Shown here in pieces: positions 39,773 to 49,956 of a DNA stretch of 64,000 bases. The first letter of the stretch is position 1. The number at the start of each line of letters is the position of its first letter. Position numbers and translations under genes: made by a program. The notes below the pieces were generated by a model, which was not told the origin of the DNA, did not search any database, and saw only the letters and a list, made by a program, of their open reading frames with translations. Origin of the DNA: a virus; UHGV virus genome UHGV-1366990. One strand, written 5' to 3'.

Positions 39773-39843
39773 TATAATTCTGTTCCTCGAGTAGTTCACT
39801 TTCACTTTAAATACCTCTGCATTCATTGTGGAGGTATTTTCTT

Positions 39844-40638
39844 ATGGCCATTCTAAAATTTGGCAATCGTGGTACTGAAGTGAAGGCACTTCAGGATAGC
39901 CTCAACAAAATCGGCTTCACCCTCGTCGCTGATGGTATCTTTGGCAAGGCAACAGAGAACGCCGTCAAGACTGTTCAGGCGGGTGCGGGGCTTGTCATCG
40001 ATGGTATCGTGGGTCCAAAGACCTCCTATGCTATTCGCAACGCCGGAGACGCCCATCAGGATCATCTAACTGAGTCAGACCTGATTGATGCTGCTAACGA
40101 TCTGGGTGTTGACCTTGCCTCTGTCAAGGCGGTAAATCAGGTTGAGTCGCGCGGCACGGGCTTCACCAAGTCAGGTAAGATCAAGACATTATTTGAGCGC
40201 CACATCATGTATAAGAAGCTGATGGCGAAGTTCGGACAGGCTCGGGCGAATGCCATGGGGCATATGTACCCGACGTTGGTCAGCCCTTCCGCAGGCGGGT
40301 ACACGGGAGGCGACGCGGAGTTGGATCGACTTCATGCGGCCATCAACATCGATGAGGATTGTGCGTACGAGAGCGCCTCTTACGGTCTCTTCCAGATCAT
40401 GGGATTCAACTGCCAGGTCTGTGGATATGCCAACGCCAAGGAGATGTTCAACGACTTCCTGACAGGAGAACGTGCTCATTTGATGGCATTCGTGAAGTTC
40501 ATCAAGGCTGACGCCAAGCTCTGGCAGGCTCTGAAGGACAAGAACTGGTCTGAATTTGCACGGCGCTATAATGGTCCGGCGTATGCCAAGAACCAGTACG
40601 ACAAGAAGCTCGCAGCAGCATACAAGAGTTTCAGTTAA
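39844..40638 (+). CDS. Endolysin: peptidoglycan-binding domain plus muramidase-like domain
   Basis: N-terminal PG-binding repeat (GNRGTEVKALQDSLNKIGF...DGIFGKATENAV...DGIVGPKT); C-terminal YGLFQIMGFN...RRYNGPAY. Confidence 0.75.
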   Translation: MAILKFGNRGTEVKALQDSLNKIGFTLVADGIFGKATENAVKTVQAGAGLVIDGIVGPKTSYAIRNAGDAHQDHLTESDLIDAANDLGVDLASVKAVNQVESRGTGFTKSGKIKTLFERHIMYKKLMAKFGQARANAMGHMYPTLVSPSAGGYTGGDAELDRLHAAINIDEDCAYESASYGLFQIMGFNCQVCGYANAKEMFNDFLTGERAHLMAFVKFIKADAKLWQALKDKNWSEFARRYNGPAYAKNQYDKKLAAAYKSFS

Positions 40639-46225: not shown

Positions 46226-46576
46226 ATGCAAGATTACAAAGAGTTGAGAATGCAGCTGGCAGTCCCCATACCAGACAAAGGTTTATACCAAAACCTGCAT
46301 CATCTGATGTCTGAAGGGCATATGCTGCCCTTGCGGTCTGAGGATGGATCTCAGATCGGTTATGCCACCAGTTGCGTGGTCTACGACAAACCAGGAGACG
46401 AAGAGCGCGGACAGGTCAGTGTGGGTTCCAGATTTGTGTTGAACAAGAAGCTGGAGGGATCAGTGGTTGACGTCAGGCCGATGATTATCCTCTACCACTT
46501 CAACGGCAAAGAAATGTTCAGGTTATTGAGCCACTTCATGATAGTCGTGGCTCCGGCATTCAGGACGAAACTCTAA
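46226..46576 (+). CDS. Hypothetical protein
   Basis: 116-aa ORF. Confidence 0.5.
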   Translation: MQDYKELRMQLAVPIPDKGLYQNLHHLMSEGHMLPLRSEDGSQIGYATSCVVYDKPGDEERGQVSVGSRFVLNKKLEGSVVDVRPMIILYHFNGKEMFRLLSHFMIVVAPAFRTKL

Positions 46577-46953
46577 TTCGTCCTTTTCAACCACACGGTG
46601 TCTGTTATTGGATCTGGATTGTTGACCACATAGAATGTGATGGTCACGCCCAGAGAATGGTAATCCTCTGACAGACTCACCGTGACTTCTTCTACCTCTG
46701 CTCTGGGTTCATACAGGGCGATGGCGTCCTCTACTTTGTTCTTCACATCTACCTGGATAGTCGGTGTCGTGTTTTCACCCAGCAGCCCATAAAGCCCCGC
46801 GCCGATCCCAGGATAAGTGGGCCAGTCCCCGACTGAAGACATGACGATATTCCGCACGGATTGTAAGACAGCATACACACCTGATTTCATAGTGACGTCT
46901 TTGGTCACCGGATGCATGCCGAACTTCAGATCGACATCTTTATACTCTTTCAT
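46573..46953 (-). CDS. 25: Baseplate wedge protein (gp25/GPW-like)
   Basis: 126 aa; size and sequence pattern of gp25-family lysozyme-like baseplate proteins. Confidence 0.7.
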   Translation of the reverse strand: MKEYKDVDLKFGMHPVTKDVTMKSGVYAVLQSVRNIVMSSVGDWPTYPGIGAGLYGLLGENTTPTIQVDVKNKVEDAIALYEPRAEVEEVTVSLSEDYHSLGVTITFYVVNNPDPITDTVWLKRTN

Positions 46954-47026: not shown

Positions 47027-48637
47027 TTACTCTTTGGTGCCGAAATTACCACCATTGTCTTTTAATTCTGCCTTGATGTCAATCTCACCCGGACCCGTAG
47101 GGGATGCAGGGGTTGCACCTGACAGAGAAGAAGCGCGACCAGCACCTTCGGCATATATGATGTTACCATTGATCGTCTGAGCGACAGTCAGTTTGTCAGC
47201 GATTATCTCAGTCGTTAGAATCTTAGGAACCTTCAATGTCCCACCGACCTCCAGAGTCTCGCAGATAATGCGCAGAATATTCTGCGCTTGCATTTCCGCT
47301 AGGTCACTGAATTTCATCAGCGCTGTGCCCGCAACCACGTTGGAGTAATTGTTGGAATGCAAATGATAGACCTCACCTGTCTTGCGCTGAACTTCAGTTC
47401 CTTTGACCGTCAGGTTGTGGTCCCCGCCGACATAATAACGCTTGTTGAACATCGTCAGGTCATAGTGGTCTTTGACGGACTTGTTGACCACATCACCATC
47501 CGGCAACATTTGCTTGTAAGACCCAGACTTATGCATCCAATGAAGACGTTCACCACCAGGGGTGTCATCCACTTCCATAATATGCCCAGCTCGGGACACC
47601 ATGACGTTATTGTACGGGTATTTAGATCCACCCGCAGCCGGAACCATGGTTTCTCCAGTGTTGTCAATATCCTGTACTCGCCCAGTAGGAGCCGGAGTCG
47701 GTTGTTCCTTTGGAGTACGATCTGGGATAGGTTCTGACCATTTACCATTCTGCTGCGCAGGCGCGGCTGTGGCTGTGTTAGCAGGACCAGGCCAACGATA
47801 TCCCAAGACCGAAGAACGTCTGAAACGACTGACCTTCACTGAATCGGATTGGTTGCCACCAATACACCAGACATAGTTTGCATCGAACTTCTGCACAAAC
47901 GCTACGTGTCCAAATGTGGGGTTGTTACCACGCCGGAAGACTACGATAGCGCCATATTGTGGTGCTGACAGTGGAGTGCCCCATGTAAGGTAAGATCGGG
48001 CAAGAGCGGAGCGCGTAGACGTGTATCCAGCCTGTATCATAACCCAACCCACGAACGCCGCACACCACGACACTTCATCTTCAGAAGCACCAAGGGAGGT
48101 TGTCTTGTGATATTCTATAATGCGCGGGTTGTTGTTGAACTTTCCAGCGTACTCCTTGATACCCAATTCGCCACGAGCGATTGTCATCCACTTCTCTGGA
48201 TCATACCCGCCAACAGGTGGTTGTGGATCTGGTTGTGGTTCGTCTTCTTGTTTCACAGGAACGTCAGTGACGGCGTTGTACGCCTGACGTTCCACAGATT
48301 GAACGACCTGCCCGAGAGCCAGCGGGTTTGTGTCGGCGCCATCAGTAGGGCTTGAACCAGTCCAAGTCCAGGTGATGCGTAAATTCTGGTATGCTTCGTC
48401 AAGGGCGAACCCCATAACCTCAGTGCCAGGAATGATACCCGTTGGAGACCAACCTAAACCAGCAGAGGAGGCGTTTGAAGCAGGCATCAGTACCTTCGCC
48501 CATGGGAGTTTGTCCGTAGGCAGGAGGACGGGATCGTCGGTGTGTACGCCATATATGCGAACAGCAACTCGCCCATTTTGGTCTGGATCGTTGACATCTT
48601 CAACGGTGCCGTAAAACCATCTCATATTGTCTAACAT
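47027..48637 (-). CDS. 5: Baseplate hub/tail-puncturing protein (gp5-like) with CHAP/NlpC-P60-like domain
   Basis: N-terminal OB region resembles T4 gp5; central SWCAAFVGWV...GHVAFV Cys/His motif; C-terminal beta-helix-like region. Confidence 0.75.
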   Translation of the reverse strand: MLDNMRWFYGTVEDVNDPDQNGRVAVRIYGVHTDDPVLLPTDKLPWAKVLMPASNASSAGLGWSPTGIIPGTEVMGFALDEAYQNLRITWTWTGSSPTDGADTNPLALGQVVQSVERQAYNAVTDVPVKQEDEPQPDPQPPVGGYDPEKWMTIARGELGIKEYAGKFNNNPRIIEYHKTTSLGASEDEVSWCAAFVGWVMIQAGYTSTRSALARSYLTWGTPLSAPQYGAIVVFRRGNNPTFGHVAFVQKFDANYVWCIGGNQSDSVKVSRFRRSSVLGYRWPGPANTATAAPAQQNGKWSEPIPDRTPKEQPTPAPTGRVQDIDNTGETMVPAAGGSKYPYNNVMVSRAGHIMEVDDTPGGERLHWMHKSGSYKQMLPDGDVVNKSVKDHYDLTMFNKRYYVGGDHNLTVKGTEVQRKTGEVYHLHSNNYSNVVAGTALMKFSDLAEMQAQNILRIICETLEVGGTLKVPKILTTEIIADKLTVAQTINGNIIYAEGAGRASSLSGATPASPTGPGEIDIKAELKDNGGNFGTKE

Positions 48638-48671
48638 ATTGAATTCCGGTTGTCAAACAAGGATTTGAAGG

Positions 48672-48679
48672 TATTTATG
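48672..48679 (-). promoter_or_regulatory. Late-promoter-like CATAAATA (minus strand) upstream of gp5-like gene
   Basis: Plus-strand TATTTATG; same ~35-nt spacing to start codon 48637. Confidence 0.45.
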
Positions 48680-48745
48680 CGCAGCTGATTTTGCCTTATA
48701 TACTATAGGAAGCTCTGCTTCCGTTCATTTTATTTGTTTTATTCG

Positions 48746-48765
48746 ATCCTATTCGCTTCGCTCAT
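48746..48765. repeat. Inverted copy of the 20-bp element at 5230..5249
   Basis: Reverse complement identical to 5230..5249; preceded by shared 11-mer TATTTGTTTTA (48731..48741; 5220..5230). Confidence 0.8.
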
Positions 48766-48973
48766 CAAACCGCCCTATGCGGGCAGCACCATTCCAATGC
48801 CATGGAGGCATAAGGGCGAGGCAATAACTGTACACCCCAGAACACTCCTTGAAAAATGGTATTTTACTGACAATCTGATTCAAAACAGACAAACACCAAC
48901 AAATGACTCGGGAACAAGCCCATTATAGCAATTTCAGGTAAAGAGAGTGCGTGTTAACCGATTTTACAGTTAA

Positions 48974-49001
48974 GCCAATAAAAATCCCGCCGAAGCGGGA
49001 T
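48974..49001 (-). terminator. Minus-strand rho-independent terminator
   Basis: ATCCCGC/GCGGGAT stem followed on the minus strand by TTTTTATT. Confidence 0.5.
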
Positions 49002-49149
49002 TACTGTTTCTTAGACAACCTGACCTTGAGGGCTTCGGTTAACAAGTCAAGATGCCATGGCATCGACTCGTTGATTTCAAATATACTATAGCCGTGTAAC
49101 TTCAATTCATCACACATCACGAAGTAGGATAATAAATCAGTTTCAAACA

Positions 49150-49956
49150 TTAAATGAAAATTTCATTAATACTATTGAATTCGATTTTGTGCTCCTTACC
49201 ACATTTCGGACACTTGATCGAACTCTTGTAGTGGATGCGCGGTATTTTGTGGAAGAAGTTCTTCGTAATGCTGTCAATAACATCTGATTCGATGTTATCC
49301 TTCACCCACTCAACAAACGCTTCTTTCACACGGCGGCGCTCAGTAGCCTCTTCCGGAGTGATCCCGATTTCTTCAGGATTCTCAACCTTCCACACCTGAC
49401 CGTCATCATCGTACAGACAGTCGATAAAGGTGGCCAGCATCATCTCAACGCTTACAGCATCAGACATTGCCGTAGCGTCCGAGAAGGAAGGTTGGCGCAT
49501 CTTGAGGTGATATCCACCTGGCAGGTCAAACGTCTCCCGGAAGCCGTCCTGAGCAATGCATTTGACGTTGTTCAACGGGATAGGTAGAGTCAGTTCCTGC
49601 TCACAGGGAACCATCTGGTGCTTTTCTTGACCATCTCCCAGATCGATCGTTTCTTCAATCTGATTATTACACTTATAACGAATCTTCATCAATTCACCGA
49701 TGGAGATCATGCGCATGCGGATGAACACTTCCTCAACAACGCCGATTGGCAGTTTACTGAAAGGTGCGCCTGCATTTACACACTCGCTAAAGAGACTCTC
49801 CATCATGGCCGCGCGTTCTTCAATCGGCGTTTGCGGATCTGACACCTGAAGTAATAAAGTTTGTTGCCCCGCAGTAAAGGCGCGATATTTGATCACAGTA
49901 GGCCAAAAGTCGCTTTTATATGTCTTTTCTGTTCTGGGCAATGATGGTAAATTCAT
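49150..49956 (-). CDS. Hypothetical protein with C-terminal zinc ribbon (CPKCGKEH)
   Basis: Internal ATG (MNLPSLP) of minus ORF 49150..50070 with RBS GGAGA. Confidence 0.6.
   Translation of the reverse strand: MNLPSLPRTEKTYKSDFWPTVIKYRAFTAGQQTLLLQVSDPQTPIEERAAMMESLFSECVNAGAPFSKLPIGVVEEVFIRMRMISIGELMKIRYKCNNQIEETIDLGDGQEKHQMVPCEQELTLPIPLNNVKCIAQDGFRETFDLPGGYHLKMRQPSFSDATAMSDAVSVEMMLATFIDCLYDDDGQVWKVENPEEIGITPEEATERRRVKEAFVEWVKDNIESDVIDSITKNFFHKIPRIHYKSSIKCPKCGKEHKIEFNSINEIFI

Follow-up and report, generated by a model that had tools for sequence, protein, structure and literature searches.

In phage T4, the central baseplate spike protein gp5 holds an enzyme domain, a lysozyme, between its scaffold parts. 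This raises the question of what occupies the same place in the gp5-type gene at positions 47027 to 48637 of the UHGV virus genome UHGV-1366990, of which we analyzed one stretch of 64,000 nucleotides (the window; positions are counted from its first letter). We concluded, with a rough probability of 0.85, that this gene encodes an ortholog of the T4 gp5 central spike which bears a papain-like Cys-His hydrolase of the TIGR02594 family instead of the lysozyme and would attack the peptide part of murein at entry. Homology of the OB domain and of the flanks, together with the lack of a GH24 lysozyme, makes the protein an ortholog of the spike scaffold and not a "tail lysozyme."

A gp5-type scaffold with a TIGR02594 domain at its center

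The gene and the parts of its product are located as follows.

47027..48637, minus strand: whole gene for a gp5-type central baseplate spike protein (ATG start and 536 amino acids plus stop in the list of open reading frames, ORFs).
48350..48637, minus strand: N-terminal gp5 OB-fold domain, residues 1 to 96 (Pfam Gp5_OB, T4 gp5 alignment, and predicted strands).
48191..48349, minus strand: linker 1, residues 97 to 149, rich in Pro, Asp, and Gln (composition; predicted local distance difference test score, pLDDT, below 50 over residues 94 to 143; no family match in the Pfam or T4 gp5 search).
47792..48190, minus strand: central TIGR02594/CHAP domain, residues 150 to 282, a predicted papain-like cysteine peptidoglycan hydrolase in the place of the T4 lysozyme.
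47630..47791, minus strand: linker 2, residues 283 to 336, rich in Pro, Ala, and Thr (composition; low pLDDT over residues 290 to 354).
47303..47629, minus strand: gp5C-like region, residues 337 to 445, related by homology to the first part of the triple-stranded β-helix of T4 (T4 alignment; octad register).
47030..47302, minus strand: C-terminal 91 residues (446 to 536), presumably the spike's tip or distal part (low-confidence model).

A first-pass annotation, made from the letters of the window alone, had described this reading frame correctly: it lies on the minus strand, starts with ATG, codes for 536 amino acids, and contains the two quoted motifs, SWCAAFVGWV (residues 190 to 199, with Cys192) and GHVAFV (243 to 248, with His244), to which we add a GGNQ motif at residues 260 to 263. 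The N terminus, which had been assigned to the gp5 OB region, indeed matched Pfam Gp5_OB over residues 39 to 96 (E = 1.9e-12, 48.1 bits, cut-off 25), and residues 6 to 101 of T4 gp5 aligned to residues 3 to 93 with a domain E value of ∼9e-15 (PDB chains 1k28 and 1pdl/5iv5). Strands were predicted in this region at residues 6 to 14, 24 to 29, 46 to 49, 73 to 78, and 86 to 92. By analogy with T4, the OB domain would serve as an adaptor between the spike and the gp27 hub trimer.

The T4 alignment broke off at residue 93 and resumed at residue 338, where T4 gp5 residues 385 to 477 aligned to residues 338 to 432 (domain E of ∼3e-13). This placed the center of the protein where T4 gp5 has its lysozyme, as had been claimed; in T4 gp5, the lysozyme lies in the gap between the aligned flanks (PMC3004832). 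The center itself had been called a Cys/His domain of the CHAP or NlpC/P60 kind, and at the level of the superfamily this assignment held, with matches to Pfam CHAP, to TIGR02594, and to papain-like folds. Pfam CHAP (PF05257) covered residues 187 to 262 (model positions 4 to 81 of 81; E = 5.7e-11, 43.2 bits, cut-off 26). The assignment to NCBIfam TIGR02594 was both stronger and more specific, spanning residues 150 to 282 (model positions 2 to 132 of 132; E = 8.7e-38, 129.6 bits, cut-off 70.55). NlpC/P60 itself (PF00877, MEROPS C40) was absent from the Pfam matches at E values up to 1, and the tie to this family is at the superfamily and fold level only.

The two linkers could not be aligned to T4 gp5, in which the cleavage that matures the protein into gp5* and gp5C takes place in a linker at the same position as our linker 2. 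Judging from its alignment, the gp5C-like region is still homologous to the broad N-terminal section of the T4 β-helix, and ∼5 VxG-type octads lie in register between residues 403 and 442. The C-terminal residues 446 to 536 were the least conserved part of the protein among its orthologs (0.52 to 0.72 identity per block), and orthologs of Serratia and Erwinia phages (605 to 617 amino acids) have a C terminus longer by 70 to 80 amino acids. At its distal end, the spike probably differs in build from that of T4.

Predicted active site and fold of the central domain

Three sites in the central domain were predicted to form the catalytic set.

48062..48064, minus strand: codon of Cys192, predicted catalytic nucleophile (N terminus of helix 192 to 202; invariant in 97 TIGR02594 sequences and 20 orthologs).
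47906..47908, minus strand: codon of His244, predicted catalytic base (start of strand 243 to 251; sole invariant column of alignment A1; also invariant in alignment A2 and in the 20 orthologs).
47849..47854, minus strand: codons of Asn262 and Gln263 of the GGNQ motif, predicted to complete the catalytic set as its third polar member (directly after strand 255 to 261).

Conservation was assessed in alignment A2, comprising 97 sequences of the TIGR02594 family, and in a set of 20 Ackermannviridae orthologs. Trp191, Cys192, His244, and Gly260-Gly261-Asn262-Gln263 were invariant in the 97 family members. Cys192, His244, and all four GGNQ residues, Asn262 and Gln263 included, were likewise strictly kept in all 20 orthologs, whose overall identity ranged from 58 to 99%, and the central block was the best conserved part of the entire protein (0.88 to 0.92 identity per block among orthologs). 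As modeled, the Cys/His/Asn-Gln layout is the canonical papain-like arrangement.

Fold searches were run with a model of the domain only, not with the full-length model. The domain-only model (residues 140 to 295, built on the 97-sequence alignment) was confident, with a pLDDT of 88.2 and a predicted template modeling score (pTM) of 0.86. Its matches (search scores in parentheses) included CHAP endolysins, i.e., LysIME-EF1 (12.6), PlyGRCS (11.7), and LysGH15 (10.8); type VI secretion system (T6SS) amidase effectors, i.e., Tae3 (10.1) and Tse1 (8.7); and hydrolases borne on the axis of contractile machines, i.e., diffocin CD1368 (12.6), the phi812 hub (8.2), and Andhra gp10 (8.4). The nearest structural neighbors included LytE, CwlO, SagA, RipB, Acd24020, and MepS, at a sequence identity of only 11 to 22%. 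Foldseek agreed on papain-like hydrolases. In a library of viral structures, the best match was the ortholog of Serratia phage 3M (template modeling score, 0.94), followed by many phage lysins and tail proteins of the CHAP, TIGR02594, and NlpC/P60 kinds.

Searches of the PDB by sequence contributed little. The A2 profile hit mostly GH108 structures via fusion partners present in the alignment, which is uninformative for the hydrolase domain, and the best matches to the domain itself were marginal (Peptidase C51 chains, E of ∼0.4 to 1.8). No TIGR02594 member with a solved structure was detectable by this PDB sequence search.

A second cysteine, Cys258 (47864-47866, minus strand), stands two residues before GGNQ. 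It was kept in 19 of the 20 Ackermannviridae orthologs; the consensus at this position in the wider TIGR02594 family is Val or Leu. A redox control of the active-site cysteine by Cys258 would be pure speculation.

Which bond the central domain may cut

Several of the nearest structural neighbors, namely, LytE, CwlO, SagA, RipB, and Acd24020, are endopeptidases for the bond between γ-D-Glu and diaminopimelic acid (DAP). Because most of the nearest neighbors belong to this group, we rated the γ-D-Glu-meso-DAP bond of the stem peptide as the most likely target. The fold model thus suggests, at roughly even odds, that the spike enzyme acts as a DL-endopeptidase.

The architecture and the role at entry would be the same if the center were instead an N-acetylmuramoyl-L-alanine amidase, which would detach stem peptides from the glycan in the manner of some CHAP domains, and we consider this unlikely but the strongest of the alternatives to a DL-endopeptidase. 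Less probable again is an enzyme of the MepS type, a DD-endopeptidase or LD-carboxypeptidase cutting mDAP-D-Ala (mDAP, meso-DAP) cross-links, which corresponds to the "peptide cross-links" option of the first-pass annotation. MepS is indeed found among the neighbors; however, it is not the top match, most neighbors that are equally close or closer are γ-D-Glu-DAP endopeptidases, and the sequence identity to all of them stays within the low range given above.

A further alternative holds that the center has no catalytic activity and that its sole service to the spike is to bind peptidoglycan or to act as a structural part. Spikes that lack an enzyme altogether exist in some phages and T6SSs, an S-layer-penetrating phage (PMC11948020) being one example, and activity of the domain considered here is so far a prediction from sequence. 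In contrast, both the strict retention of Cys192, His244, Asn262, and Gln263 across orthologs and family members and the fact that no other part of the protein is as well conserved as the central block speak for a working enzyme, which makes an inert module very improbable.

To a lysozyme we give virtually no credence: it appears only in the annotation text of many GenBank records and in the name of PHROG 430, labels inherited from T4 gp5 via the flanking domains, whereas Pfam and NCBIfam detected no glycoside hydrolase family in the spike protein, T4 gp5 residues 102 to 384 gave no alignment to residues 94 to 337, and the fold searches with the central domain model returned papain-like hydrolases, the matches listed including no lysozyme fold. 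The lysozyme reading was rejected at the level of both sequence and fold. Neither a lysozyme nor a nonenzymatic fold for the center, the two outcomes that the first-pass annotation had named as speaking against its proposal, appeared among the listed matches of the domain and fold searches.

Proposed role of the spike at entry

By analogy with T4, three copies of the protein would form a trimer under the tail tube, held together by the C-terminal β-helix and with the OB domains docked in a gp27-like hub. Contraction of the sheath would drive the β-helix needle through the outer membrane, after which the three hydrolase domains would open the peptidoglycan locally and the tube would reach the inner membrane. 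As in the T4 spike, the hydrolases could become active only once an occluding helix or linker is displaced. Going by its family membership, the enzyme would cut the peptide moiety of murein and not the glycan. The final lysis of the infected cell would be left to an unrelated muramidase endolysin encoded elsewhere in the window.

39826..40638, plus strand: endolysin (PG_binding_1 plus PF11860 N-acetylmuramidase; a separate protein, unrelated to the spike hydrolase).

Orthologs of the spike protein are constituents of virions, as mass spectrometry has shown. ORF61 of LIMEstone1 is recorded as a "confirmed structural protein," the Sajous1 virion yielded 20 spectra of a "tail associated lysozyme," and the ViI ortholog has been seen in proteomics (PMC3184105). 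Moreover, target cells burst rapidly through the action of a T6SS effector from the TIGR02594 family, a genetic phenotype (PMC13340143) which supports a lytic action on murein for this family.

Several points weigh against the reading of the protein as a gp5-type spike with a murein peptide hydrolase. Pfam found no Gp5_C repeats in the spike protein, in which only the ∼5 VxG octads are recognizable. For residues 446 to 536, neither T4 gp5 nor the PDB nor Pfam offered a counterpart; together with the few octads, this leaves the shape of the needle and of its tip uncertain. The full-length AlphaFold monomer, computed from a 42-sequence alignment, reached a mean pLDDT of just 54, with unreliable linkers and an unreliable C-terminal half; a poor monomer model is to be expected, since the T4 relative is an intertwined trimer. 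At 11 to 22% identity, the cleaved bond cannot be read from sequence or fold, as the neighbors are a mixture of DL-endopeptidases, MepS (DD-endopeptidase/LD-carboxypeptidase), and CHAP enzymes, which can be amidases. That the protein trimerizes and associates with gp27, that its enzyme is first occluded and then activated, and that a maturation cleavage may take place are all notions transferred from T4. Finally, the searchable literature contained no enzymatic assay of the spike protein or of an ortholog; for the gp5 proteins of Ackermannviridae and for TIGR02594 enzymes, it gave genome descriptions, virion proteomics, and the T6SS genetic phenotype only.

Genomic setting of the spike gene

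Nucleotide identity places the window within the genome of a ViI-like phage of the family Ackermannviridae. A segment of 4.1 kb around the gene was 98.9% identical to Escherichia phage A221 and ∼93% identical to Shigella phage Ag3, and it shared 60 to 80% identity with >200 Ackermannviridae phages of Salmonella, Klebsiella, and Dickeya. Compared with deposited sequences, the copy in the window belongs to the A221/RPN242 lineage of the subfamily Aglimvirinae (99 to 100% identity). The spike gene lies among genes for baseplate hub and wedge proteins, between a gp25-like and a gp26-like gene, and probably has a promoter of its own.

46573..46953, minus strand: gp25-like baseplate wedge subunit, adjoining gene 5 downstream (Pfam GPW_gp25, E = 3.1e-8; PHROG 261, E = 1.1e-32).
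49150..49956, minus strand: gp26-like baseplate hub subunit, upstream of gene 5 (Pfam T4_baseplate, E = 1.4e-46; the start codon is uncertain, and the end coordinate was taken from the 807-nucleotide annotation in RPN242 and LIMEstone1).
48672..48679, minus strand: probable T4-type late promoter of gene 5, box CATAAATA (∼35 nucleotides 5′ of the ATG; ATAAATA invariant in a 6-sequence alignment).

The consensus of T4 late promoters is TATAAATA (PMC3184105), and the record of LIMEstone1 labels the same ATAAATA box a "putative late promoter." An ORF of 49 amino acids (49001-49150, minus strand), to which no function was assigned, has the same orientation as the gp26-like hub gene and abuts it. 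At the stop codon of this ORF starts a strong intrinsic-terminator hairpin (48983-49002, minus strand), with a stem of 8 bp followed by TTTTTATT. Its position between the gp26-like operon and gene 5 argues that gene 5 is a transcription unit apart from gp26.

In LIMEstone1, the gp27 homolog is ORF26, within a baseplate and tail-tube cluster (ORF23 to ORF27), and the gp5 cluster (ORF59 to ORF62) lies apart from it. The examined part of the related genome has no annotated gp27 or PAAR/gp5.4 partner. Within the 64-kb window, there were neither tRNA or tmRNA genes nor Rfam families at the gathering threshold.

A conserved element upstream of gene 5

The gap of 363 nucleotides from the terminator to the start of gene 5 (48638-49000) is unannotated in the closest genomes, and it is as conserved as coding DNA, with 92.8% identity to Dickeya phage LIMEstone1 and ∼72% to Kuttervirus and Taipeivirus. 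Most of it is taken up by a single element.

∼48700-48935, minus strand (gp5-sense): conserved element of ∼230 nucleotides (family-wide conservation plus hairpins).

We compared 19 distinct copies of the element from four or five lineages. Read in the sense of gp5, the layout is a −10-like box that is conserved as TT..TATAA (the window has TTGCTATAAT) and then ∼70 variable nucleotides. The near-invariant core contains local hairpins, namely, AUGCC-UCCAU-GGCAU, RCUGYCY/RGRCGGU, and a small third one. The next hairpin is GGAAGC-AGA-GCUUCC, which reads GGAUGC...GCAUCC or GGCUGC...GCAGCC in other genera. On the 3′ side of this covarying hairpin are a TATAAT-like box and then the invariant ATAAATA late-promoter box.

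In the local helices derived with RNAalifold, 98.6% of cells paired, compared to 27 to 45% if the partners were slid, and six pairs were changed on both sides. The covariation score was 0.184 versus 0.102 in shuffled alignments (0 of 500 reached 0.184) and ≤0.048 after sliding, to be read with the caveat that the structure was derived from the same sequences and that there are few independent change events. Invariant U-G pairs and frequent G-U pairs are valid on the gp5-sense strand only. The stability of the single-sequence fold was modest (z = −1.66; 11 of 200 shuffles folded as well). Searched against Rfam, the element had no match at gathering thresholds, and the terminator hairpin drew only subthreshold noise; a literature search turned up no published description of the element.

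We tentatively regard the element as an undescribed structured RNA common to the Ackermannviridae, a small RNA or a long leader, which might be transcribed from the −10-like box and perhaps regulate gene 5 or other targets in phage or host; this proposal we rate at somewhat below even odds. The alternative is that the element codes for a peptide. All copies, in all genera, have an open micro-ORF of 18 to 37 amino acids, MPPWHW[N/K]G.... It has no Shine-Dalgarno sequence, its C-terminal part shifts frame via insertions and deletions although the nucleotides are conserved, and the upstream frame is broken by a 1-nucleotide insertion or deletion. Frame changes amid nucleotide conservation make a constraint at the nucleotide level likelier than one at the protein level, and a coding function for the micro-ORF peptide appears less likely from these comparisons. 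The upstream element may be more novel than the spike hydrolase and, more than any other item, merits a look of its own.

Comparison with known systems

The closest described case is the gp5 homolog of CBA120 (537 amino acids), for which Kutter et al. reported the same architecture in 2011, with CHAP/TIGR02594 at residues 150 to 282 and flanks common to T4 gp5 at residues 3 to 109 and 334 to 437 (PMC3184105). These boundaries match those computed independently here. The orthologs of CBA120, ViI, Ag3, LIMEstone1, and other Ackermannviridae have the same three-part architecture and the same neighbor genes, and there is no difference of substance. The swap of a lysozyme for a cysteine hydrolase is hence correct but is not new, having already been published for CBA120 in 2011. 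The spike protein was 84% identical to Kuttervirus representatives, and its architecture is kept throughout the Ackermannviridae (proteins P0001 to P0023, 58 to 99% identity, all with precomputed PF05257 plus PF06714).

As in the T4 gp5 structures (PDB 1K28 and 5IV5), the enzyme domain is inserted between scaffold parts, the gene lies beside gene 25, and the product is presumed to be a membrane-piercing, murein-opening spike. The middle domain of T4 gp5 is a GH24 lysozyme, 43% identical to the T4 endolysin (PMC3004832). Thus, the spike lysozyme and the endolysin of T4 are paralogs, whereas the spike cysteine hydrolase and the PF11860 endolysin of the window are unrelated and would attack different parts of the polymer. 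The β-helix differs as well: T4 gp5 has eleven VXGXXXXX repeats (PMC3004832), compared to the ∼5 recognizable octads found here, which are followed by 91 residues without a T4 match.

Members of the TIGR02594 family are otherwise known as free-standing proteins, phage lysins, and T6SS effectors, and they have the W-C, G-H, and GGNQ motifs in common with the spike domain. In bacteria, fusions of the TIGR02594 domain with PG_binding_1, or with GH108 plus PG_binding_3, are frequent, whereas here the domain is embedded in a spike scaffold. The hub hydrolase of diffocin (CD1368; 8V3W), the hub lytic domain of Staphylococcus phage phi812 (9EUF/9EUM), and the tail-tip lysin gp10 of Andhra (8EJ5) are not built on a scaffold of gp5 OB plus β-helix; they act on Gram-positive targets and share 13 to 18% sequence identity with the spike hydrolase.

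Other gp5-type scaffolds carry the hydrolase in different combinations. In Rhizobium phage RHph_Y68 (Pootjesviridae; L003 4001-4837), OB and TIGR02594 are joined without the gp5C part, and the metagenomic proteins P0024, P0025, and P0028 (315 to 333 amino acids) have the same OB plus TIGR02594 look, also without gp5C. In the metagenomic protein P0027 (492 amino acids), the order of modules is changed, with OB at residues 1 to 79, a gp5C-like part at 146 to 222, and a TIGR02594-like hydrolase at 363 to 452. Other Gp5_OB proteins among the matches listed bear other domains. The rearranged modules in these proteins indicate that the hydrolase is a mobile module on gp5-type scaffolds, and mobility between such scaffolds is an idea already accepted.

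Since the substitution has been known since 2011, the current understanding is left unchanged. At most, the spike TIGR02594 domain may have a bond specificity, or a mode of activation by occlusion through β-helix and linker as in T4, of a kind new for a cysteine hydrolase. Public records name the protein in conflicting ways, as "tail lysozyme," as "cell wall-associated hydrolase," or as "TIGR02594 family protein." Of these, the widespread label "tail lysozyme" is chemically wrong and a poor guide for enzybiotic or engineering work. The "warhead" of gp5-type spikes is an exchangeable module, for which ViI-like phages use a hydrolase of the cysteine peptidase type and T4 a lysozyme.

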